From the NCBI GenBank assembly GCA_944381375.1, contig CALWKX010000036.1, positions 448-64,447 of the forward strand: a stretch of DNA of 64,000 bases, given 5' to 3'. This DNA is from an uncultured Lachnospiraceae bacterium (GTDB lineage: Bacteria; Bacillota; Clostridia; Eubacteriales; Anaerofustaceae). Of the stretch, positions 33,948 through 46,602 are shown in pieces. The number at the start of each line of letters is the position of its first letter. The stretch's first letter is position 1. A model generated the notes under the pieces. That model worked only from the letters and a program-made list of their open reading frames with translations. It ran no database searches and was not told where the DNA came from. The position numbers and the translations under genes were made by a program.

Positions 33948-34383
33948 TATTATTTGTAAATTCATTCAGCATGGTGAATAAACCGTATAGATGCGATGAA
34001 AATTTGTTGCGATTGACATATCAATTTGAAAATGAGAATTACTTTTGCCCTCTCTTTTAAAATTGATTCATAGCTTACTGCTCAGATGAACATTATACTG
34101 AATTGTTTATCTTTTTTTCTGATATTTTGTGGAGCTAATACTTATTAGCATTATCGTGTTTTATTGTGTTTCTATTTTTACAGTAAAGATTTTTTTGTCT
34201 GTGTTTTTTTAATGGAATTAAAAAACAGCGTATAGTAATGTTTAAAAGATTAGCTTAAAGTGTGAATATTTCAGATTACTGCGTTTGACTTGCGATTATA
34301 TTTATTTGTTTTATTGCTGAGATTAGCTTGATATTGTATAATCAATAAAATAATAATTATATTTGTACATTTATATGAGAAAG

Positions 34384-34482
34384 AAAAAAAGCTTGCAATG
34401 CAAGCTTTGGTTCACCACTGTGAAACCGGATATACCGGTAAATACGGCGTAGCCTTATTTGAACTTTGTGTGTTAATCTATT
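34384..34482 (-). ncRNA. tracrRNA-like small RNA (type II CRISPR-Cas), apparently intact
   Basis: The minus strand reads ...CACAAAGTTCAAATAAGGCTACGCCGTATTTACCGGTATATCCGGTTTCACAGTGGTGAACCAAAGCTTGCATTGCAAGCTTTTTTT. The GTT(C/A)AAATAAGGCTA-N-CCGT core mirrors the S. pyogenes tracrRNA nexus (GTTAAAATAAGGCTAGTCCGT). Three perfect hairpins and a T7 terminator follow. A TTGACA-17-TAGAAT promoter lies at 34517-34489. It is divergent from the adjacent cas9 remnant. The ends are approximate. Confidence 0.55.
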
Positions 34483-34545
34483 TATATAATTCTATATTAC
34501 ATATATTTAAATGTCAATAGCAATATAAAAATGTGAGAAAAGCAA

Positions 34546-36107
34546 ATGAAAGTTAAAGAGTATTTTTTAGGTCTTGATATTGGAACAACTTCAGTAGGTT
34601 ATGCTGTGACCGATACGGATTATAATCTTGTAAAATTTAAAGGTGATGATTTATGGGGTATTCGTCTATTTGAACAAGCGCAAACGGCTCAGAATAGACG
34701 AGTCTTGCGCAATGCCCGCCGCAGAAGGGAAAGACAAAAGCAGAGAATAGCTTGGTTGCAGGAGGTTTTTGACGCGGAAATCTCTAAAACAGATCCCGGA
34801 TTTTTTCAAAGGCTTAAGGAAAGTAAATTCAGACCTGAAGATAAAGAAAATAGTGAAATGATAGGTAGATATACCTTGTTCAACGATGCGGATTATACCG
34901 ACAGTAATTTTCACGAAGAATATAAAACCATATATCATTTGCGTAAAGCGCTTATAGATGATACGTGCGCTGCGGACGCAAGGCTTGTATACTTAGCGAT
35001 ACATCACATAATGAAAAAACGCGGACATTTTATTTTTTCGAAATTTGATACGGAAGAAATTTCTTTAGATGGTGCTATTGATGAGTTAAACACTGCATTA
35101 GAAAATGAATATCCTGAAGAAGGATATGTCTTGTTCATAGAGAATAGTGAAGATTTAAATAAAATTTTATTTGACAGCGCCTCAAGTATTACAGAAAGAA
35201 AAAGAGCTTTAAAGGAATTATTTCAAAGGTTCATCTCCTTTAAGTGTTATTGTTGATTTGATTGCAGGCAGGCAAAGGTCAGGCTTTGGTCAAATCATCC
35301 GATAAGCGAATGAATATCAAGTATTACGGCGGATACAACAAATGTAAAAGCGCTTATTTCATATATGTTGAATATACTCAAAAAAATAAGCGTCAACGAT
35401 CTGTCGAAACAATTCTGCTTATAGATAAAGAAAGGTATGAAAATAATCCTGAAGAATTTTGCCGGAACGTTCTGAAGTTAGATGACGCAAAAATTCTGAT
35501 ATCTAAAATAAAAATCAACGCATTGTTATCAATCAATGGGTTCAGAGCTCATATAACTGGCAGATCAAACAACAGTTTGCTTTTGGCAAATGCGAACCAA
35601 TTTATGATATCACCTGAGGATTATGATTATCTAACATCAGTTGCAATTTTTAACACTTATTACTGTGGATATAAAGATCAAAATAAGAATGATACGGCAG
35701 ATAGTAATGAAAATGCTTTAGCATTAAAAGAAAATAATATTGCAGATATAACTGGAGTAAGCAAAGAAGGCAATGCGAAATTATACCAAATGTTTTTGCG
35801 TAAAATGAGCAGTAAACCATACATTATAAAGCGCGAAAAATTATTCCACGATCTTGCAGGCGCGGAAAGTAAATTTAATAAATGCAGTATCGCGGAGCAA
35901 TGCGTTATTTTGTCGGAAATTTTAAAATTATTTGTATGCAAAACATATTCAGCTGATTTGACCAAATTGGATCTTGCTCCCAATAGCGGGAAACTTGCAA
36001 TAGCAAAAAATATTAATACGCAAACTGAAATCAAATTGATCAACCAGTCCATAACGGGTGCGTTTGAGAATGAAATTGATCTTAATAAAGTCGGGCTTAT
36101 TAAATGA
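34546..36107 (+). pseudogene. cas9: cas9 remnant with an internal deletion of roughly 860 codons plus a frameshift
   Basis: The ORF at 34546-35256 starts MKVKEYFLGLDIGTTSVGYAV (RuvC-I catalytic Asp motif). The Arg-rich bridge helix (RRVLRNARRRRERQKQRI) and the start of the REC lobe follow. The ORF at 35262-36107, in a different frame, matches the Cas9 C-terminal PAM-interacting domain (YYGGYNK..., LINQSITGAFENEIDLNKV versus SpCas9 LIHQSITGLYETRIDLSQL). HNH, RuvC-II/III and most of REC are absent. Confidence 0.8.
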
Positions 36108-36157
36108 TATGATTAGCTGTAAAATATTAATCAGCAAAACTCTTAGAAATTTTTCAT

Positions 36158-36179
36158 AAAAAAACACCCTTTATGGGTG
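36158..36179 (-). terminator. terminator downstream of tRNA-Gln
   Basis: The minus strand reads CACCC-ATAAA-GGGTG followed by TTTTTTT. Confidence 0.65.
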
Positions 36180-36188
36180 AAGCCTGCA

Positions 36189-36264
36189 TGGCAGGGGCAG
36201 CAGGACTCGAACCTACGCATGACGGAATCAAAATCCGTTGCCTTACCGACTTGGCTATGCCCCT
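36189..36264 (-). tRNA. tRNA-Gln (anticodon TTG), encoded CCA
   Basis: The reverse complement gives AGGGGCATAGCCAAGTCGGTAAGGCAACGGATTTTGATTCCGTCATGCGTAGGTTCGAGTCCTGCTGCCCCTGCCA. The anticodon loop is TTTTGAT. Confidence 0.9.
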
Positions 36265-36402
36265 TCGTCTGATTTTTATAATTGTAAAAAAATAAAGCTT
36301 GATCACAAATTCGAGAATGATTTTATCATATCATTTTTTTAATGTCAATCAGTTTTAATAAATATAAACGCCCCGTTTATACCGGGGCGTTTATATTCGG
36401 CT

Positions 36403-36555
36403 TTATTTGCCTGTTTTTGATTTGGCATCGCTTTTTCTGTTAGTTGTTTTGCTTTCGCTTTTATCGTAAGCGCTGCTTGTTTTTGACATTTTATCCTGTC
36501 CGCTTTTTGAGGACTGTGATTTGTTGGATGCCTTTCTTTCATTTGTTTTTGCCAT
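36403..36555 (-). CDS. small (50 aa) Lys/Ser-rich hydrophilic protein, possibly a minor spore-protein-like peptide
   Basis: The ATG at 36555 is preceded by a GAGGTGAA RBS. It encodes MAKTNERKASNKSQSSKSGQDKMSKTSSAYDKSESKTTNRKSDAKSKTGK. A hairpin terminator (36364-36392) begins about 10 nt after the stop. It is below the 60-aa cut-off of the ORF track. Confidence 0.45.
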   Translation of the reverse strand: MAKTNERKASNKSQSSKSGQDKMSKTSSAYDKSESKTTNRKSDAKSKTGK

Positions 36556-36703
36556 TATATTCACCTCACGTTTGTATTATCACCATTTACGTAAAAAATA
36601 TTTATGATATATGCTGATAATTTTATCCATTTATTGTCCTGTTAAAATTGAAGTTGTAACAATTGTGTGATATTATGGAGAAAAACTGTCATCGAGGTGC
36701 TTT

Positions 36704-37951
36704 ATGAATAAAGAATTTCATATAAATAAACGTTCAGAGCTTATAAGCAAGCTTCCTGATAAATCATTTGCTATTATTAACAGCGGCGTTATTTTAAATA
36801 TGACACTTGACAATGAATACCCTTTTGAAGTCGACCGTAATTTTTATTATTTTACAGGTATTGCTTTTCATGATATGTCTCTCGTGATTATAAAGAATGG
36901 GGACGCGCAGAAGAGTGTTTTATCAATCCCTCGCATTGATCCGAACAAAGAAAAATGGGTAGGTAAATTTTATACTCCTGAAGAATGTATGGCCATCAGC
37001 GGAGTTGAAAGCGTGATATTCAACGATGAGTTAGATGCTTTTATATACAGCCTTGTCAATTCACATAATTTCAGCGTTGCTTACATGTATATGGACGCTG
37101 TTGAAGGAGCAAAGCCACAAAATAAGAATAATTTGGAGTACAGCCGGTTCAAAACAAAATATCCGAGTATTAAGACCGAGGATTTGTATATGTTGACTTA
37201 TCCCATGAGATCTGTGAAAACCCCGGAAGAAATAGACGCCATAAGGGAATCTGCTGAAATTACAAAACTTGCTTTGCATGAAATGATGAAAAACGTCAAA
37301 CCGTCGCTGAAAGAGTATGAAGCCCAAGCGTGTTTTGAGTATGTTGTAAAACGCAAAGGTGCAAAAATCGCTTTTAATACTATCGCTGCATCAGGCGCAA
37401 ATGCCACAGTTCTTCATTACATATCCAATAACGATACATTGAAAGATGGGGATTTATTGCTTGTAGACTGCGGTGCTAGTTTGAATTGGTATAATGCGGA
37501 TGTTACAAGAACAATTCCTGTAAACGGAATTTTTTCTGAAAGACAGCTTGAGCTTTATAAAATAGTTTTGGGCGCGAATAAACATATTATAAGCTGCATT
37601 AAGCCCGGAGTGAGCTGTGCGCAGCTTAATGAGTGGACAAAAGAATACTATTATCGCGCATTGAAGTCTATAGGTCTGATATCTTCGGAAGATGAAGTAG
37701 AAAAATATTATTATCATGGCGTATCGCATCATTTGGGACTCGATGTGCATGATGTTGGTTTGAAAAACGAGCCTCTTGCGCCCGGAATGGTTATTACTGT
37801 TGAGCCAGGGCTTTATATTGAAGAGTATGGAATAGGTATACGAATAGAAGACGATGTTTTAGTTACTGCTAAGGGTTGTGAGGTTCTTACGGATGTATTG
37901 AAGGAGCCTGAAGAAATTGAAGAGTTTATGGATATTTGGGAGGTGAAATGA
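36704..37951 (+). CDS. pepP: Xaa-Pro aminopeptidase (M24B family)
   Basis: Creatinase-like N-domain plus a pita-bread fold with the metal ligands DCGA..., HGVSHHLGLDVHD and IRIEDD. Confidence 0.9.
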   Translation: MNKEFHINKRSELISKLPDKSFAIINSGVILNMTLDNEYPFEVDRNFYYFTGIAFHDMSLVIIKNGDAQKSVLSIPRIDPNKEKWVGKFYTPEECMAISGVESVIFNDELDAFIYSLVNSHNFSVAYMYMDAVEGAKPQNKNNLEYSRFKTKYPSIKTEDLYMLTYPMRSVKTPEEIDAIRESAEITKLALHEMMKNVKPSLKEYEAQACFEYVVKRKGAKIAFNTIAASGANATVLHYISNNDTLKDGDLLLVDCGASLNWYNADVTRTIPVNGIFSERQLELYKIVLGANKHIISCIKPGVSCAQLNEWTKEYYYRALKSIGLISSEDEVEKYYYHGVSHHLGLDVHDVGLKNEPLAPGMVITVEPGLYIEEYGIGIRIEDDVLVTAKGCEVLTDVLKEPEEIEEFMDIWEVK

Positions 37952-39363
37952 TTTTGGATAACAAACAGCTTGAAAAGTTTATTACATACGAGCGCAAATC
38001 CGCTTGGGGAAATAATATCGACGCTTCTATGGAGTATGCCGAGGGGTATAAAAGATTTATCGCTAAAGCCAAAACGGAAAGAGAATGTGTGAGAGAGGCG
38101 CTTTCATATGCGAAAGAAAAAGGCTTTGTTGATCTCAATGATAAAATAGCCTCAGGTGAAAAAATCAATCCTGGAGATAAACTCTATTATGTACATCAGC
38201 ATAAATGCATAGTTATGTTCATCATGGGAACAAACCATCTTACTCAAGGTATGAACATAACGGCAGCTCATATAGATGCACCGCGTCTTGATTTAAAAGC
38301 TGTGCCGTTTTATGAAGAAGCCGGCTTGTCTTTGCTCAAAACTCATTATTACGGAGGAATAAAAAAATATCAGTGGACAGCTATGCCTCTTGCTATGCAT
38401 GGAGTTATTTTCACAAAGGATGGGAAACGTCTTGATATTGCAATTGGCGAAAACGATGATGATCCTTGCTTTTTTATATCGGAGTTGCTTATCCATTTAT
38501 CCTCCGAACAACTGTCAAAAAAAGCTTCGGTTGCGGTTACAGGAGAACAGCTTAACGTTATCGTAGGAAATATTCCCATTGACGATGAAGAAATAAAACA
38601 AAAGGTGAAATTCAGCACATTAAAGCTTTTGTATGAAAAATACGGCATTACAGAGAAAGATTTTTTAAGCGCCGAAATAGAAATAGTCCCTGCGATAAAA
38701 CCACGAGACATCGGATTCGACCGTTCGATGATTGTAGCTTACGGACATGACGACAGAGTATGCTCTTATGCTGCATTTTCGGCATTGTGTGATATTGATC
38801 ATCCGGAAAGAACCTGCGCATGCATTCTTTGCGATAAGGAAGAAATAGGAAGTGTTGGATCAACGGGATTAAACGGATTGTTTTTTGAAAATATAGTCTC
38901 AGAGCTTATTAATCTTACTTCAGATGAATATTCTGAGCTTGCCTTGAAAAGAACACTTGCTAATTCGTACGTTTTGTCCATGGATGTCGGCTGCGTTCTG
39001 GATCCTTCGTATTCTGATGTGTTTGAAAAACTGAATACGGCAATCGCAGGTGATGGCGTTATATTGGAAAAATACTGCGGTTCGCGTGGAAAGTATGATA
39101 GCAATGATGCTAATAGCGAGTATCTGTATAAGCTTTGCAAATTATTTAATGATAATAACGTAATTTTTCAAACAGGAGAGCTCGGCAAAATTGATGCAGG
39201 TGGAGGAGGTACTGTAGCGTATATGCTGGCAAAATACGGAGCGCTGACTGTCGATTTGGGTGTAGGTGTTTTGTCTATGCATGCTCCTTGTGAGTTGATA
39301 AGCAAGGCCGATCTTTACAGCGCGTATAATGCGTCCAAAGTATTTTATAATATTGAAAAGTAA
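37948..39363 (+). CDS. M18-family aminopeptidase
   Basis: NITAAHIDAPRLDLK, HYYGGIKKYQW, YGHDDRVCSY and DKEEIGS are motifs of the aspartyl/M18 aminopeptidase family. GGGAGGTGA RBS. ATGA overlap with pepP. Confidence 0.85.
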   Translation: MILDNKQLEKFITYERKSAWGNNIDASMEYAEGYKRFIAKAKTERECVREALSYAKEKGFVDLNDKIASGEKINPGDKLYYVHQHKCIVMFIMGTNHLTQGMNITAAHIDAPRLDLKAVPFYEEAGLSLLKTHYYGGIKKYQWTAMPLAMHGVIFTKDGKRLDIAIGENDDDPCFFISELLIHLSSEQLSKKASVAVTGEQLNVIVGNIPIDDEEIKQKVKFSTLKLLYEKYGITEKDFLSAEIEIVPAIKPRDIGFDRSMIVAYGHDDRVCSYAAFSALCDIDHPERTCACILCDKEEIGSVGSTGLNGLFFENIVSELINLTSDEYSELALKRTLANSYVLSMDVGCVLDPSYSDVFEKLNTAIAGDGVILEKYCGSRGKYDSNDANSEYLYKLCKLFNDNNVIFQTGELGKIDAGGGGTVAYMLAKYGALTVDLGVGVLSMHAPCELISKADLYSAYNASKVFYNIEK

Positions 39364-39400
39364 AAAGAAGCTTAGCTTAAAAAAGCTAAGCTTCTTAAAA
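39364..39400 (+). terminator. stem-loop after the aminopeptidase operon
   Basis: AGAAGCTTAGCTT-AAAAA-AAGCTAAGCTTCT long perfect stem. The U-tract is weak. Confidence 0.6.
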
Positions 39401-39624
39401 TATGTCTGTTATGAGGCTTCAACGAACTGGCATATAGTTTATTGAACTTGTTTCTTTGGTCGCTTCTAATTTGAAAATTACGGGCCGTATACTATCGTTG
39501 CAGCTTACAATTGCAACGATAGTGATTCTGATCCAATCTCCGTAATAAAATAGTCCTTTGTCAGAACCATGAGAAAGAGATAGGTATCCTTAATTCTGGC
39601 ATTTTATTACAAAGTCAAGCTTTT

Positions 39625-40131
39625 TTATTCTGTCTCTACAGGGTTTATTTCAGCAAGTGAGATGACGAGTTTTCCGTTTTGCGAATATTCGTCTACTCTT
39701 ACTTTATTATTTTCCTGCTTTAATACTAATATAAATACAATATCGTCTCCTTGCTGAGATATTGAGAAGTTGTCAATCAATTTGCTTTTGCTTATGTCTA
39801 AATTTTGTTTTGATTGTAATATACAACTGTATATTGTCCCTTCTATTTTATTTGTATCATTATCTATTTTTATATTGTAATAAGGAAGCTGAGAATTGCT
39901 CTGCTCATCATTTTGTATGTCAAATATCAGTTTTTCAGGGCCAAGAAGCCATGATAAGTCAATATTACGTAAATAAGAATTTTTTATTTGTTTGTCGCCG
40001 CCTTCAAAATTATCATCATTGATATAGTTATCATTTTCGTTGTTTTTGTATTTTGCGATATTTTCGCTGCAGCCTGTGAAAGCTGCGCAGCATATTAATA
40101 AGCACAATATATATGCAAATGCTTTTTTCAT
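39625..40131 (-). CDS. putative lipoprotein (168 aa)
   Basis: Signal peptide MKKAFAYILCLLICCAAFTGC with an FTGC lipobox. No other recognisable domain. Confidence 0.7.
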   Translation of the reverse strand: MKKAFAYILCLLICCAAFTGCSENIAKYKNNENDNYINDDNFEGGDKQIKNSYLRNIDLSWLLGPEKLIFDIQNDEQSNSQLPYYNIKIDNDTNKIEGTIYSCILQSKQNLDISKSKLIDNFSISQQGDDIVFILVLKQENNKVRVDEYSQNGKLVISLAEINPVETE

Positions 40132-40274
40132 GTAATTACTCCTTGTAAAAGTATCAGATTCACAATATTATTATTAACTCAAATGTTAAAATTGAATCAC
40201 TTAATAAAACTTTTATTAAAAGAACGAATGTGCTATAATTCATTTGTAAGTATTTACTAGAAAGTTAACAAAAT

Positions 40275-42515
40275 ATGGAAACAATTAGCGGCAGAATAAA
40301 AAATATCATTTATAATAACCCAAACAACGGTTATACGGTCGCGCAAATTGAGACGGATGCGGGCGTAATTTCTATGACGGGTACTTTGGTTTCTGCTGCT
40401 ATAGGAGAAAAAATAATAGCAAGCGGAGAATGGTACATTCACCCTAAATACGGTCAACAATTTCGTATTGTTAAAGTTGATATAGACAGGCCTGATAGTA
40501 TAGATGAGATAAAAGCGTTTCTGTCCAGCGGAATAATAAAAGGCCTTGGTGAGAAAAAAGCGGCTTTACTTATTGAAAAATTCGGAGAATCAACGCTTGA
40601 CATAATTGAAAATCATCATAATTTACTTACTTCAATAAGCGGTATCGGAAGTATGACGGCGGAAAAAATACATTCTTCTTATTGCGAGCTTTCCGGTGAA
40701 AGAAACACTGTTATTGCTCTTTCCAAATATGATATAACTCCCAACGCTGCAATTAAACTGTATGATGAATATGGCGCAAACGCAGTCAAAATAGTAGAAA
40801 ATAACCCTTACCGGCTCATCGAGGATGTGTACGGCTTCGGATTTGCCAGAGCTGACGCAATAGCCATGAAAGTCGGTATTGCGAATGATTCTCCTGAGCG
40901 AATTAAAGCGGGGATATTATTTTTTTTAAACAATATCACTTCTTCCGGACATACGTTTATGTTTGAAAATGTTCTCATAAACAGCGTCTCACATAATTTG
41001 GGAGTGAGCGAAAATGATGTCGAATACGCTCTTAATAAACTTATAATCAGCGGCAAGCTTATAGTCGATGAAAATTATTCACAACGTAGAGTGTATTCAT
41101 CCTATATGTATGAACGCGAAAGTATATGCGTCGATAAGTTGAGCGAGCTTTTAAGCTCTTGCGTTAAGGTGCGCCAAAATGATATAGAAAAACTTATCTT
41201 CAACTTTGAAAAAGATAACGGTATCCAACTTGATTCAGAGCAAAAAAAAGCAATAAACATGGCGGTCAGCAGCAAAGTATCAATCATCACCGGCGGTCCG
41301 GGTACAGGTAAAACAACTATTATTAAAGCCATTATTTATATTTTTTCATTAATGAGAAAAAGTTTTTCTTTGTGCGCTCCGACAGGTCGCGCTTCAAAGC
41401 GAATGAGTGAGGCATGTTGTTATGAAGCGAGTACTATCCATCGGCTTCTTGAGTTCGGATATAATCCCTCCTTTGAAAATTCTTCATTGGCAGATGATTC
41501 CTATATGTATTTTCAAAGAAATTCAGAAAATCCGCTGGAATGCGATGTTGTTATCGTGGATGAAATGAGTATGACGGATATTCTCTTGTTTTCCCATCTG
41601 TTAGAGGCTTTTGCAGATAAAACACGCCTTATTATGGTAGGAGACGGTAATCAGCTTCCGCCTGTAGGGCCGGGCAACGTGCTTAACGATCTTTTGAAGG
41701 TGAAGCAAATACCCAGCGTTTCTCTTAATAAAATATTCAGACAGTCAGACGAAAGTTCAATTATAGTCAATGCCCACAGAATTAAAGACGGGAAATATCC
41801 GCTGTTTGATAAATCCAAACAAGACTTTATTCTGTATGAAGAGAAAAATCAGTCCAATATTGCACGCCGTATAATTAGATTGATAAGCAATGAACATGCT
41901 GGTATAATGGAACGGTTCAAAAATGATGAAGTGCAAATACTTACCCCGTTTAAAAAAGGGGAGGCCGGCACGCATGAACTTAATAAATTATTGCAGGAAT
42001 ATATCAATCCCTTAAGAGTTGGCGAAAACGAAGTAAAGACTGCTGATTATGTACTAAAAGAGGGCGATAAAGTAATGCAGACGAAAAATGATTATCAGGC
42101 TAAATGGCAAAATATAAATACGCATGAAAAAGGACAAGGCGTGTTTAATGGCGAAATAGGCGTAATAAAGTATATCAATCCGTCTCAAGAAACGCTGAGC
42201 GTGTTGTTCGATGCGGAAAAGTTTGTAAACTATAGTTATAAAGATGCGGACAATTTAACGTTGGCCTATGCTGTGACTATACATAAGAGTCAGGGCTGCG
42301 AATTTGATACGGTAATTATTCCTGTTTTCTGCAAAAATCCTCAGTTTTTAACCCGTAATCTTATATATACTGCAATTACCAGGGCAAAAAGAAAAGTTGT
42401 TTTGGTGGGAGAGTTATCGGTTATAGGAATGATGGTTCGTAACAATCAGTCCCCTCAAAGAATGTCGGCGCTTGCGGAAAGGCTTAATGATGCTATTATT
42501 AAATGCTGCGGTTAG
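40275..42515 (+). CDS. recD2: ATP-dependent RecD-like DNA helicase (RecD2/SF1B)
   Basis: N-terminal OB/HhH module. Walker A GGPGTGKTT, DEMSM, the GDGNQLPPVGPG motif, and the C-terminal SH3-like VTIHKSQGCEF. Confidence 0.9.
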   Translation: METISGRIKNIIYNNPNNGYTVAQIETDAGVISMTGTLVSAAIGEKIIASGEWYIHPKYGQQFRIVKVDIDRPDSIDEIKAFLSSGIIKGLGEKKAALLIEKFGESTLDIIENHHNLLTSISGIGSMTAEKIHSSYCELSGERNTVIALSKYDITPNAAIKLYDEYGANAVKIVENNPYRLIEDVYGFGFARADAIAMKVGIANDSPERIKAGILFFLNNITSSGHTFMFENVLINSVSHNLGVSENDVEYALNKLIISGKLIVDENYSQRRVYSSYMYERESICVDKLSELLSSCVKVRQNDIEKLIFNFEKDNGIQLDSEQKKAINMAVSSKVSIITGGPGTGKTTIIKAIIYIFSLMRKSFSLCAPTGRASKRMSEACCYEASTIHRLLEFGYNPSFENSSLADDSYMYFQRNSENPLECDVVIVDEMSMTDILLFSHLLEAFADKTRLIMVGDGNQLPPVGPGNVLNDLLKVKQIPSVSLNKIFRQSDESSIIVNAHRIKDGKYPLFDKSKQDFILYEEKNQSNIARRIIRLISNEHAGIMERFKNDEVQILTPFKKGEAGTHELNKLLQEYINPLRVGENEVKTADYVLKEGDKVMQTKNDYQAKWQNINTHEKGQGVFNGEIGVIKYINPSQETLSVLFDAEKFVNYSYKDADNLTLAYAVTIHKSQGCEFDTVIIPVFCKNPQFLTRNLIYTAITRAKRKVVLVGELSVIGMMVRNNQSPQRMSALAERLNDAIIKCCG

Positions 42516-43239
42516 TACTTTTATTAACAGTATTAAAGAATTAGGCAGTGATATGTTGTTTGTCAATAATCCTGTCTGCCCTGTATGCAAAAGGGTCATG
42601 TTTTTCGATGAAAATATTTTGTGCAAATCGTGTGTAGATAAACTGAATTATATTAATGATAACGAATGTCATGTTTGCGGAAGTAAAATAAATTCAGAAA
42701 ACATTTTATGTGATCATTGCATGAGCATATATTCAATGGACGCAGGAAAATCTGTTTTTACATACGATAATATTTCATCCTGCGTAATACACGATTTTAA
42801 ATATAACAGAAACAGATATGCGGCAAAAGAATGTGGAAAACGTCTGGCTGAAAGGCTGGCGGATGTATCTTGGATAAAGGATATTGATATTATTACGTGT
42901 GTGCCGTGTACAGCCGAAAAACTTAATCAGCGAGGCTACAATCAGGCGGCTTTAATTGCCTTAGCATTATCAGATGCGTTAAATATAGAAGTGAATAATG
43001 AAATACTTTTAAAATGTCGTGAAACAAAAGATCAAATAGGCTTAAGCTATGAACAAAGATTCGAAAATGTCAAAAACGCATTCGAGGTGATAAACTATAA
43101 AATCATTGAAAATAAAACAGTTTTAATAGCTGATGATGTGTTTACATCTGGAGCAACTATTAATGAATGTACAAATATGCTGAAAAAATCAGGCGCGCGT
43201 ACAGTATATTTTGCTACAGTTGCGTTGGCGCGCGAGTAA
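42472..43239 (+). CDS. comFC: ComF family protein (ComFC-like phosphoribosyltransferase with an N-terminal zinc finger)
   Basis: CPVC...CKSC and CHVCG...CDHC cysteine pairs, followed by the PRTase motif VLIADDVFTSGATI. The start is uncertain (42472, 42487 or later). As drawn, it overlaps the recD2 end. Confidence 0.75.
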   Translation: MRKGLMMLLLNAAVSTFINSIKELGSDMLFVNNPVCPVCKRVMFFDENILCKSCVDKLNYINDNECHVCGSKINSENILCDHCMSIYSMDAGKSVFTYDNISSCVIHDFKYNRNRYAAKECGKRLAERLADVSWIKDIDIITCVPCTAEKLNQRGYNQAALIALALSDALNIEVNNEILLKCRETKDQIGLSYEQRFENVKNAFEVINYKIIENKTVLIADDVFTSGATINECTNMLKKSGARTVYFATVALARE

Positions 43240-43261
43240 TTTTGAAAGGGAGGAAATATCT

Positions 43262-43783
43262 ATGAAGCTCAACATCAATTCTAAAAATTACGGTTTGAAA
43301 GGCTACGTAAAGGAGGAAATAGAAAAGCGTTTTGATAAACTCAGTAAATATTTTACTGACAATACGGTATGCACAGTAATGGTTTCCGGAGAAGGAAGCA
43401 GCACAAAAAAAGTTGAAATTACAATGAATGTAAAAAACAATGTTTTGAGAAGTGAAGTTAAAGACAATGATTTGCACGTAGCTATAGACAAAGCAGTCGA
43501 TAAGCTTGAAAAGCAGCTTGTTAAACATAAAGAAAAGCTTAGAAAACGCAACAATGATACTATACGCTATGACAATATAGAGGATGTGAAGTCTCAGGTT
43601 GTATTTAATATAGTAAAGAACAAGACATTCAAATTAATACCAATGACGGCTGATGAAGCATGCTTTCAATTGGAGCTTCTCGAGCATAATTTTTACGTAT
43701 TCATAAACAGTGATAACAATAAAGTAGCCATAGTATACAAACGCAGTGATGACGATTATGGTCTTATTGAGGTTGAAAAGTAA
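43262..43783 (+). CDS. hpf: ribosome hibernation promoting factor (long form)
   Basis: MKLNINSKNYGLKGYVKEEIEKRFDKLSKYF... is an S30AE-type N-domain. The C-terminal dimerisation domain follows (KPMTADEACFQLELLEHNFYVFIN). GGGAGG RBS. Confidence 0.9.
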   Translation: MKLNINSKNYGLKGYVKEEIEKRFDKLSKYFTDNTVCTVMVSGEGSSTKKVEITMNVKNNVLRSEVKDNDLHVAIDKAVDKLEKQLVKHKEKLRKRNNDTIRYDNIEDVKSQVVFNIVKNKTFKLIPMTADEACFQLELLEHNFYVFINSDNNKVAIVYKRSDDDYGLIEVEK

Positions 43784-43875
43784 AAAAAACATAAAAATAG
43801 TAATTAATTCGTAACAATATGTGATAGAATACTATAATAGAGTTCAGCAAAACAATCGTCTTTGGAGAGGTTAAA

Positions 43876-45570
43876 ATGATTCTTGTAATAGTGGCGATAT
43901 TGTCAATAATTGTAGCGTTTATAAGAAAGGGAAGTTTTTCTAATATCAAGGAAAGCGGATTGAAAGCATGGATATTGCTGCTGCTTTCGGTTTTGGTATT
44001 TGCGGCAGTTTATATTGGAGATTATATGGCGATATCCTTTATTCAGAATTTCGCGTTTATCTTTCTTATTATAGCATACGCGCTTTTGATTATAGGTTTG
44101 TTATTAAATCTGAATGTCGTTACTTTTATAATGCTCTTAGGTACTCTGTTGAATTTTGTGGTTGTGTTTATTAACGGCGGGAAAATGCCATTATCAGAAA
44201 ACATGATAAATATAGCAGGATTGAGTATTGACACGATAAATGCTTCCGCTGTTTTTACTGTAGCATCTCAGAGTACGCATTTGCCTGTTCTAGGAGGAAT
44301 AGTGCCTATACCTCTTCCAGGTATATTAGCTCAGATAATTTCTCCAGGAACTATTATTTTAGCCATAGGTCTGTTTTTCGAGATTCAAAATCTTATGCTT
44401 GGCGTTGTGTATGAGTATGATGACAATGAAGATGAAGAAGATGATGATAATGAAGAAACTTCTGATAAAACTTCAAACAATAAAGGTTCTCGCAAACAGG
44501 TTCAGGAAGAACCAGAGGATGAAGATGATTTTGACCTCGGTAAAGATTATACGGTTGGAGACATAGATATCCATGAAACCGACAGACTTCCGAATTTACC
44601 TTTGGAAGAAGATGATGCTGAGAAGGCAGCAGATGTTTCTACTCAGCAGGAATCAGAAGATGAAACGATTGGTGACGAAGACATAATTGATGAGGATCTT
44701 ATCGAAGAATCTGATGAAGATGATTTTCAGAATACTGCGGCGTTTTTCGATACGATTAATATAAAAGATGAAGAAAATAATCAGTTTGAGTCTGACGAAG
44801 ATGATAACGCTTTTGCGGCTTTCGATGAATTAACAGGCTCGGAAGAAGATTCTGATTTAACAGACGCTGTGGAAGATTCAGAGGAAGAAGAATTAAATAA
44901 AGTCGATCCTTTTGATTCCGTTTCGTATCAATCAGATCAGGATGATTCAGTATTTGAGGGTTCCGATGAACTTTCATTCAGTGAAGTGAATGAAGATGTT
45001 TCTCAAGTCAGAGATAATGTGTACACAGAAGAAATATACTCTGAACCTTACGAAAGCCCGTCTCACGTACAGGATGACCCCTATAAAGATTATACGGCGG
45101 AAGATCTGACTCTGAAAAAAGACGCGCTTATACAGGCAAAGGAAGTAATTGAAAATGATTTATCTAGAGTAAATAAAGAACCTGTTAATGATGAACCTGC
45201 AATACGCGAAAAACAGTCGCCTGTCGAAGTTGATACTGATAGCCCGTTCATAATAGTCAACGGTAGGATTGTAGAAAATCCGTATTATAAGTTCAGAAGA
45301 GGCGTTAAAGTAGATTCATCTTCTCCGGCTGAACAAATCGGAAGCGGCGTATACGTTATGAAGAGCCGTAATCCGTCAATTGCCGGCCGCCCGAGTTTTG
45401 CGCCCGCTTCTAAAATGACGGAACAGAATAAACCAAAATCTCAGCCTTCTGTAAAAATATCAAAAATAACAGAGGATGAAGATTCCGATGACGATAAAAA
45501 ATATGAAAAAGTAGAAATGCAAATAGGTGATGTCCAGATAAAATTCTGGAAAAAAGACAATGATAACTAA
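43876..45570 (+). CDS. membrane protein (DUF5317-like N-terminal TM domain) with a long Asp/Glu-rich disordered region
   Basis: Residues 1 to about 175 form several TM helices. An extremely acidic low-complexity sequence follows (YDDNEDEEDDDNEE..., nt ~44411-45090). The C-terminal segment is Lys-rich. Confidence 0.7.
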   Translation: MILVIVAILSIIVAFIRKGSFSNIKESGLKAWILLLLSVLVFAAVYIGDYMAISFIQNFAFIFLIIAYALLIIGLLLNLNVVTFIMLLGTLLNFVVVFINGGKMPLSENMINIAGLSIDTINASAVFTVASQSTHLPVLGGIVPIPLPGILAQIISPGTIILAIGLFFEIQNLMLGVVYEYDDNEDEEDDDNEETSDKTSNNKGSRKQVQEEPEDEDDFDLGKDYTVGDIDIHETDRLPNLPLEEDDAEKAADVSTQQESEDETIGDEDIIDEDLIEESDEDDFQNTAAFFDTINIKDEENNQFESDEDDNAFAAFDELTGSEEDSDLTDAVEDSEEEELNKVDPFDSVSYQSDQDDSVFEGSDELSFSEVNEDVSQVRDNVYTEEIYSEPYESPSHVQDDPYKDYTAEDLTLKKDALIQAKEVIENDLSRVNKEPVNDEPAIREKQSPVEVDTDSPFIIVNGRIVENPYYKFRRGVKVDSSSPAEQIGSGVYVMKSRNPSIAGRPSFAPASKMTEQNKPKSQPSVKISKITEDEDSDDDKKYEKVEMQIGDVQIKFWKKDNDN

Positions 45571-45654
45571 AATGCTTAAATTGTCTAATAAAATTTTTTA
45601 TGTATTAAAAAAAGAGGCGAAGAGTTACTTTGCCTCTTTAATAATTTTATGCTT

Positions 45655-46602
45655 TTATTGTGTAATTAATTCGCCTAATACACGGCCAAGATAGACTGCT
45701 GTGCGTTTGGCTTCTTCCAATGTTGAAAGATTACTGCCAAGCTCAAACAATATTGTTGTAGGCGCTACATATTGATTGTATTTATAAGGTCGTTCGAGTA
45801 TTTTTCTGAACATATCCGGATACATTTCATTCATTTTATTTTGAATTTGAGTTGCAAAGTCTATATTGTTTTGATATGTCTCGGTTGTAGTACCGATTAC
45901 CAGCATGACTCTGGCTGCGCTTTCTCCGTTTACTTCGGTTTGGTAAACGGAAAAATTATCTTCTGTATTTGCAAGCCCGTCACGATGAATATCAAATGCG
46001 TATTGTATGGATGGATATTCTTCCAAAGCTTTTTCAACTGCTATAAGCGATTTATCATAAGCGCTGTCGTAAGGCTGATCGTATACTTCTGTCAAATGCA
46101 ACACTTGTATACCGTATTCCTGATAAAGAGTCTGCGCAACTATATGACCAATACTTATGAGATTTTTAGTTGGGTCTGTTGAACGGTATGTTGTAGGATT
46201 ATTTTCATCATAAAATGACTCTGTAGTATGTGTATGATATATTACAACAAGCGGCTGTCCGTTGTGATATTGTGTATTCAGTAATTCCTGTGCGTCCGTT
46301 TGCTGCTGCGATATTTCAGCATTGTCGGAAGATACGCCCTCAACTACCGGAAATGACTGCATAAAAACATATCTTGCAATATTTGTAATTGTATTTTGAA
46401 TATTTATTTTGTCTTGATCTATTTCTTTCGTAAAATATGAATTAAGTCCCAAGCTCAGCACGCTTTCATATAGATTAATATTATCAACGCCTTGCTTGAT
46501 TGTTGAGTAGAATGACATGGGTATATTTATAAGAATCAGCGCTACGAAAAATAATGCTATTTTGAATTTATCTTTATTGATGATACTTTTTTTTCTTTTC
46601 AC
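45655..46602 (-). CDS. spoIIP: stage II sporulation protein P
   Basis: N-terminal TM anchor. VVIYHTHTTESF and FDIHRDG motifs of SpoIIP amidase/peptidase. Conserved position next to gpr. Confidence 0.85.
   Translation of the reverse strand: MKRKKSIINKDKFKIALFFVALILINIPMSFYSTIKQGVDNINLYESVLSLGLNSYFTKEIDQDKINIQNTITNIARYVFMQSFPVVEGVSSDNAEISQQQTDAQELLNTQYHNGQPLVVIYHTHTTESFYDENNPTTYRSTDPTKNLISIGHIVAQTLYQEYGIQVLHLTEVYDQPYDSAYDKSLIAVEKALEEYPSIQYAFDIHRDGLANTEDNFSVYQTEVNGESAARVMLVIGTTTETYQNNIDFATQIQNKMNEMYPDMFRKILERPYKYNQYVAPTTILFELGSNLSTLEEAKRTAVYLGRVLGELITQ

Follow-up and report, generated by a model that had tools for sequence, protein, structure and literature searches.

Why should a tracrRNA gene with its promoter, fold and terminator intact lie beside a cas9 gene that has been destroyed? 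The question is raised by a locus in the window, the 64,000-nucleotide stretch of DNA from an uncultured Lachnospiraceae bacterium that was analysed here. A sequence-only reading of this DNA had picked out such a gene on the minus strand, and had suggested either very recent loss of the CRISPR system or co-option of the RNA as a regulator. The evidence assembled below makes it likely that the gene is a young, probably functionless relic of a recently deleted type II-A locus.

The tracrRNA gene and its predicted structure

Re-reading the minus strand from 34517 to 34384 reproduced the originally quoted sequence exactly. The predicted sigma-70-type promoter (34489..34517, minus strand) comprises a -35 box TTGACA at 34517-34512, a 17-nt spacer and a -10 box TAGAAT at 34494-34489; a consensus scan agreed with this earlier assignment, at 11 of 12 positions. 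The unit that would be transcribed from it is ~99 nt long (34482-34384, minus strand), its 5' end being predicted from the -10 box, and is composed of an anti-repeat, the GUUCAAAUAAGG nexus, two hairpins and a terminator. The gene is divergent from cas9 and directly upstream of it, beside the type II cas operon as is expected of a type II-A tracrRNA gene, with 29 nt between its -35 box and the cas9 start codon.

The anti-repeat (34457..34482, minus strand) consists of AAUAGAUUAACACAC as the upper stem, an AAA bulge and GUUCAAAU as the lower stem, and aligns with the anti-repeats of live relatives. An AA junction then precedes the nexus hairpin GGCUACGCC (34446..34454, minus strand), which forms helix 1 of both covariance models described below, is aligned by the Rfam model RF02348, and has two pairs that both covary between GC and AU forms in a set of 21 sequences. 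Hairpin 1, ACCGG-UAUAU-CCGGU (34425..34439, minus strand), exhibits compensatory changes at five of five pairs across the family, while hairpin 2, UUCAC-AGUG-GUGAA (34411..34424, minus strand), is paired in 97% of the cells of the family alignment. The Rho-independent terminator (34384..34408, minus strand) has a 9-bp stem in which 9 of 9 pairs covary, a 3-nt loop and a U7 tract; its stem-loop occupies 34408-34388 and is followed by T7 to 34384, shuffled versions of the region containing an average of 0.1 terminators.

The nexus, three perfect hairpins and U7 tract that had been read from the letters are also those into which the 99-nt RNA folds, at -25.8 kcal/mol (z = -3.26 relative to dinucleotide shuffles). 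The structural hallmarks of a tracrRNA, namely a nexus after the lower stem, 3' hairpins and an intrinsic terminator, are present, and the four helices form with covariation across the family. Beyond the terminator, a 436-nt AT-rich stretch (33948-34383) extends to a flavodoxin-like gene; it contains no ORF, repeat or RNA-family match, and may once have formed the edge or the leader of the locus now lost.

Remains of cas9 and intact loci in relatives

The cas9 gene has been reduced to its two ends. The N-terminal remnant (34546..35256, plus strand) is open over 236 codons and encodes RuvC-I, the bridge helix and the start of REC (TIGR01865 positions 1-174, E = 6e-55; bridge helix PF16593). Its closest relative is the Cas9 of G254, an uncultured Butyricicoccus MAG (contig CALWBL010000009), to residues 1-218 of which it is 50% identical. 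The C-terminal remnant, corresponding to the PAM-interacting (PI) domain (35262..36107, plus strand; PF16595, E = 5e-61), is open over 281 codons and is 38% identical to residues 1076-1335 of the same protein, in a frame different from that of the N-terminal piece. Using tblastn with the G254 Cas9, the deletion junction was located to 35224..35270 (plus strand), residues 1-218 stopping at 35223 and residues 1076-1335 beginning at 35271. The earlier description of cas9 as broken is therefore accurate: ~857 codons, encoding the REC lobe, RuvC-II, HNH and RuvC-III, are gone from between the two pieces, with a change of frame.

The damage extends beyond cas9. At the right edge of the former locus (36108..36264), a tRNA-Gln gene (36189-36264, minus strand) and its terminator directly follow the cas9 stop; the tRNA gene begins 82 nt past this stop, where live relatives have cas1-cas2-csn2 and the array, and no trace of Cas1, Cas2 or Csn2 was detected by tblastn after the cas9 remnants. 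Exact-product look-ups of the flavodoxin gene and of the ATG-started PI ORF returned nothing on record.

Searching 399 scored genomes sampled from the same class with the N-terminal remnant identified intact Cas9 proteins that measure ~1,310-1,400 aa and are up to 51-53% identical to it; a search for related loci in a collection of genome contigs, again with this remnant, gave no relative. The locus of G254 is a complete type II-A system, comprising cas9, cas1, cas2, csn2 and seven 36-nt repeats, GTTTGAGAGTCGTGTTATTTTAGATGGTAGTCAAAC, which pair with its own anti-repeat. Its tracrRNA unit is divergent from cas9 and upstream of it, with the same core and order of hairpins as in the window, and this divergent arrangement is found in the live relatives G254, G008, L039 and L042. 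The promoters of live relatives match the consensus at 9-12 of 12 positions and lie 15-44 nt before the lower stem, compared with 11 of 12 positions at 24 nt in the window. As these are comparable promoters at a comparable place, the near-consensus promoter of the window can be regarded as simply inherited.

The live-locus group also includes a contig with an unusual array placement for a type II-A system: L043 (OLRJ01000548.1) has four degenerate 36-nt repeats at 152-385, just past the tracrRNA gene on the side away from cas9, and oriented opposite to it. L046, a contig related to L043, was without an array over the 3.3 kb that follow csn2.

A tracrRNA family in the Clostridia

As judged from sequence and modelled structure, the minus-strand unit is a genuine type II-A tracrRNA gene, from a Clostridia sequence family that lies outside the reach of the Rfam model. 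RF02348, which is presumably a streptococcal model given its S. pyogenes-type consensus, was the top match on the unit and was spanned in full (E = 0.098). The proposed likeness to the S. pyogenes nexus is evident in this match, which aligns AAGUUCAAAUAAGGCU to the consensus, although the total of 25.5 bits is below the threshold of 70.

Further units were gathered using the pattern ACAC-N5-GTTCAAATAAGGCT-N3-CCG, which is common to the window and G254 units. It retrieved three genome contigs and nine metagenome contigs and, on all those long enough to judge, the unit adjoins an intact cas9. A first covariance model, R1, was trained on seven tracrRNAs beside intact cas9 genes, with the window left out. 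As RNAalifold predicted a spurious long-range pairing between nexus and terminator from the initial MAFFT alignment, the structure (nexus, hairpin 1, hairpin 2 and terminator) was set by hand. This model matches the window unit over its full length (34479-34386, minus strand) with 61.8 bits and E = 5e-11, a score that should be read in the light of the training set having been gathered by a pattern partly taken from the window. R1 also finds the unit at 19 of 20 cas9 loci of live relatives that were chosen by protein homology alone. A second model, R2, was built from 16 tracrRNAs adjoining cas9 genes picked by protein homology, the members being located with R1; it gave the window unit 59.2 bits (E = 1e-5 genome-wide), and this was the sole match in the 1.54-Mb genome. 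The covariance-model scan that had been suggested as a check hence came out positive with two models, both built without the window.

In a model-guided alignment of 21 sequences, 94% of cells contain standard pairs and, at 20 of the 22 pairs, both partners have changed. The alignment gives a covariation score of 0.704, whereas the maximum on sliding the partners by one to three columns is 0.167; being fitted to the model, the alignment is biased in its favour, yet the difference is large. The resulting tracrRNA family, supported by covariation, could be of use in annotating the guide RNAs of these Clostridia Cas9 orthologues.

Two other results of these searches were set aside. A second R1 match in the genome (C22:12544-12655, plus strand, corresponding to L054 1501-1612; 27.9 bits) was rejected as a false positive: the sequence carries a pair of terminator hairpins in tandem downstream of an ABC-2 transporter gene, has no core motif and goes undetected by R2. 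A search of the bacterial family with the whole unit as DNA matched only the AT-rich promoter part, and was uninformative.

Search for partners in the genome

The genome assembly comprises 1.54 Mb in 38 contigs and is 92.65% complete. No second cas9, cas1, CRISPR array or second tracrRNA was found in it; the earlier observation that no crRNA array exists thus extends to the assembled genome, with the proviso that arrays often fail to assemble. The repeat cognate to the anti-repeat is likewise absent from this genome. Apart from the gene itself, no complement to the first 23 nt of the RNA with up to five mismatches occurs genome-wide, shuffled queries averaging 2.65 hits, nor does any complement to the 16-nt upper stem with up to two mismatches, for which shuffled queries average 4.0. 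The orphan status of the gene is hence supported by the kind of search originally recommended, nothing in the 93%-complete assembly pairing with the anti-repeat.

Decayed repeats were also sought in the 436-nt spacer and after cas9. The only candidate, a T-rich sequence at 34196-34223 (plus strand), GTCTGTGTTTTTTTAATGGAATTAAAA, is marginally like a G254-type repeat, with a score of 26 relative to a null distribution with a 95th percentile of 24 and a maximum of 29. It may be what is left of a repeat, or may have arisen by chance; it was not accepted, because the score is marginal and the sequence would not pair with the window's own anti-repeat. A search of the scar regions for a self-matching, spacer-like piece returned only short AT-rich chance matches.

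These searches bear on the suggestion that the tracrRNA still works with an intact Cas9 and array elsewhere, whether on a plasmid or prophage or in the ~7% of the genome missing from the assembly. This seems very unlikely. Although the 38 contigs are only 92.65% complete and CRISPR arrays are often unassembled, the whole-genome searches revealed no other cas9, cas1, array or second tracrRNA, every live locus examined has its own adjacent tracrRNA, and the neighbouring cas9 with which this RNA co-evolved is dead in all five of the five assemblies described below.

Strain distribution and age of the loss

Exact-product look-ups traced the 236-aa fragment to three further samples; for the aminopeptidase encoded next to it, they added another three contigs. 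The deletion junction is common to five assemblies (that of the window, L050, L051, L052 and L055) at 99.5-100% identity. The sequences of L050 (corresponding to window 34225-35890) and L052 (34459-35495) are 100% identical to the window, junction included, while L055 (GCA_947853405.1; window 35154-45952) is 99.9% identical over 10.8 kb that again include the junction. L051 (window 34125-35766) also contains the junction and is 99.5% identical, with eight differences, none of them in the RNA or cas9. Because the junction recurs in four further assemblies, produced independently from different samples and with different assemblers, a MAG misassembly of a locus that is really intact, which the fragmented state of the genome assembly might otherwise suggest, is effectively refuted as the source of the cas9 deletion.

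All eight of the differences in L051 fall within 34135-34211, a 77-nt part of the AT-rich spacer near the end of a contig with a coverage of 3.2; this cluster could reflect a recombination boundary or low-coverage errors. In L055, the PI remnant differs from that of the window by a G>A substitution (35430) and by a 1-nt deletion that shortens an A-run (35731), leaving ORFs of 146 aa and 105 aa. The deletion may represent either ongoing decay or a homopolymer assembly error.

The bridge helix/RuvC-I and the PAM-interacting domain both contact the guide RNA in solved Cas9 structures. Both of the surviving pieces are open in the window, and the second begins 5 nt past the stop of the first, such that translational coupling is conceivable. 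That the two pieces still bind the tracrRNA as a miniature ribonucleoprotein with some new activity is nonetheless extremely improbable. On direct reading, the PI frame is without a recognisable ribosome-binding site, and no comparable split is seen among homologues, the short matches looking like contig fragments; furthermore, the PI piece is frameshifted in L055, another strain of the species, which implies that this remnant is dispensable.

The remnants also provide an estimate of the age of the loss. They contain no stops in 517 codons and, with stop-creating changes making up ~4.6% of single substitutions, this absence limits neutral divergence since inactivation to at most ~4.2% (95% upper bound), and probably far less. 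On TIGR01865, the N-terminal remnant reaches 187 bits, and the corresponding segment of four live relatives 185-202 bits. As the remnant codons are without stops and score like live genes, the loss is young, at no more than ~4% neutral divergence, and from so young a loss a perfect 99-nt gene is to be expected: the probability of the 44 paired nucleotides of the RNA remaining unchanged is 0.64 at 1% divergence, and still 0.17 at the ~4% bound. The assertion that the intactness of the RNA is unexpected under neutral decay does not stand, since the cas9 remnants are equally intact; selection on the RNA need not be invoked where it is no better preserved than the pieces beside it. By contrast, the option of very recent loss fits all the data, including the 99.5-100% identity of the locus in the four other assemblies. 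The general caution is that an intact RNA beside a dead gene does not amount to selection where the remnants of that gene are equally undecayed. With strain diversity of ~0.1%, the identical copies of the tracrRNA are uninformative for or against constraint.

Full-length Cas9 proteins found among 1.84 billion representatives reach at most 41-42% identity to the PI remnant. At this level of identity, the intact ancestor of the window's Cas9 lineage would appear to be unsampled.

On the most likely reading, a type II-A locus with its own tracrRNA gene, complete with promoter, anti-repeat, nexus, two hairpins and terminator, has recently been destroyed. A single deletion took ~857 codons out of the middle of cas9, shifting the frame, and cas1, cas2, csn2 and the CRISPR array have been lost too. 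The tracrRNA would have survived owing to its small size, its position at the outer edge of the locus and the limited time for point mutations to accumulate in 99 nt. In the assembly it has neither a crRNA partner nor a Cas9 into which to load, which would make it a relic awaiting decay. Its membership of the family, its structure, the deletion, the lack of partners in the assembly and the recent origin and spread of the dead allele are all results of the analysis, whereas transcription and lack of function are inferred. The near-consensus predicted promoter suggests that it is probably still transcribed, while its most likely state is one without function. The locus offers a clean, well-documented snapshot of the death of a type II CRISPR-Cas system, in which the interior and the adaptation module have been deleted and the outermost small RNA gene left untouched.

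Assessment of co-option

Co-option as a regulatory RNA, the second of the two original suggestions, was not upheld: there is no complementary target, the copy is not conserved in related genera and a functional Cas9 is absent. The known cases of regulation by tracrRNA or scaRNA need, to our knowledge, a functional Cas9, and the precedent is therefore inapplicable to a genome in which cas9 is frameshifted and lacks ~857 central codons and no second cas9 was found. Nor does the RNA possess a guide segment. The promoter abuts the anti-repeat, with no 5' extension, and no complement with up to five mismatches is present in the genome.

A Cas9-independent role has to be considered separately. The RNA might be kept by selection as a small RNA whose free anti-repeat or nexus pairs with host transcripts; the promoter, fold and terminator are all intact, and S. 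pyogenes tracr-S has been found to bind host RNAs and affect fitness without Cas9 in L. paracasei (PMC12302355). The published effect is, however, toxicity in a foreign host, with no documented regulatory role (PMC12302355), and the age of the loss fully explains the intactness of the gene. Furthermore, an extended complementary site occurs nowhere in the genome, and searches of the bacterial family's 24 other genomes, at the DNA level and with the model, revealed only the live locus of G008 and an unrelated orphan at a different site in G019, rather than the distribution of a conserved trans-acting small RNA. Co-option of this sort is accordingly judged improbable.

Distinctly unlikely, too, is an expressed orphan tracrRNA that has acquired a Cas9-independent role through pairing of its anti-repeat or nexus with host or phage RNAs. 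Were it true, the gene would be a natural counterpart of the Cas9-independent effects of tracr-S in L. paracasei, and the repeated survival of solo tracrRNAs, in the window and in G019, would reflect selection and not chance. The locus would have a bearing on the independent lives of orphan tracrRNAs only if the RNA were both expressed and functional without Cas9.

Other orphan tracrRNAs and degraded loci

The interpretation of the gene as a young relic can be set beside other cases. The orphan in G019, a member of a different genus within this bacterial family, lies at C3:20639-20726 (plus strand; L065 9940-10027), between maf-radC-gtrA and a gene for a 1,494-aa surface protein, and scores 41.4 bits on R1 and 63.7 bits on R2. 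No cas9 homology was detected in the 14.7 kb available around it, and no cas9 in the 75%-complete assembly; similarly, neither a repeat matching its anti-repeat nor an upstream promoter was detectable. A cas1 of this genome was considered as a means of rescuing the orphan and discounted, as the only cas1 adjoins a non-type-II array with the repeat ATAAGAACTCATAATTCCCCAGATGGGGACGGAAAC. The lack of a detectable promoter in G019 contrasts with the window, where 11 of 12 positions match; the near-perfect promoter of the latter may point to expression having been maintained, or just to a younger orphan.

A sample of 150 genomes from the class contained tracrRNA matches in seven other genomes. Four of these are beside an intact cas9, two are split or cut by contig ends with parts of cas9 present, and the last is in G078. 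G112, initially a candidate for a further orphan, proved to contain a live locus that is interrupted by a gap in the assembly. In G078, the contig starts inside the tracrRNA (G078:C18:1-80; 54 bits) and no cas9 was found in the 98%-complete assembly, which would make it a further orphan unless the assembly simply broke at the anti-repeat.

In the Mollicutes, type II systems are degraded in 8 of 21 cases, including a locus without cas genes that retains a predicted tracrRNA (Ipoutcha et al. 2019, PMC6882279). The survival of a tracrRNA after the loss of a type II system is a recurrent, ordinary event.

Comparison with known systems

Several RNAs derived from tracrRNAs are used outside immunity. 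The scaRNA of F. novicida and the natural sgRNA tracr-L of S. pyogenes act through a DNA-binding Cas9. Phage vsgRNAs also act through Cas9, according to a preprint whose acknowledgements mention 'orphan tracrRNA elements' (bioRxiv 10.64898/2026.06.01.729453). The window differs from all three in being without the REC lobe, HNH and most of RuvC, and its RNA has no long 5' extension or guide segment.

A close structural parallel is the S. pyogenes type of II-A tracrRNA, which likewise lies directly upstream of cas9 and runs divergently from it. The parts come in the same order (RF02348; modules as defined by Faure et al. 2019, PMC6546382), with a bulged anti-repeat, AA junction, nexus, 3' hairpins and terminator, and the GG..CC nexus reads AAGUUCAAAUAAGGCU in the window against AAGUuAaaaUAAGGCc in the Rfam consensus. 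The window nevertheless represents a separate family from uncultured Clostridia, in which two hairpins lie between nexus and terminator, and its Cas9 and crRNA are gone.

The live loci of Clostridia MAGs (G254, OZ007036 and CALCQJ010000015; L038-L047) share with the window the core ACAC-N5-GUUCAAAUAAGGCU-N3-CCG, the four helices, a strong promoter and the position adjacent to cas9. They differ in having an intact Cas9 of 1,335-1,400 aa, cas1-cas2-csn2 and 36-nt repeats with which the anti-repeat pairs; their Cas9 proteins are ~50% (N-terminus) and 38% (PI domain) identical to the remnants in the window. The linker after the nexus is also distinctive, reading GUAUUU in the window in contrast to GAAAUC or CAACCC in most relatives.

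The degraded loci of the Mollicutes (PMC6882279) and the orphan of G019 resemble the window in their fate, cas genes having been lost by deletion while small RNA parts persist. Compared with these, among which G019 has neither a cas9 stub nor a detectable promoter, the window retains both ends of cas9 in an undecayed state, together with a tracrRNA promoter that is close to the consensus.
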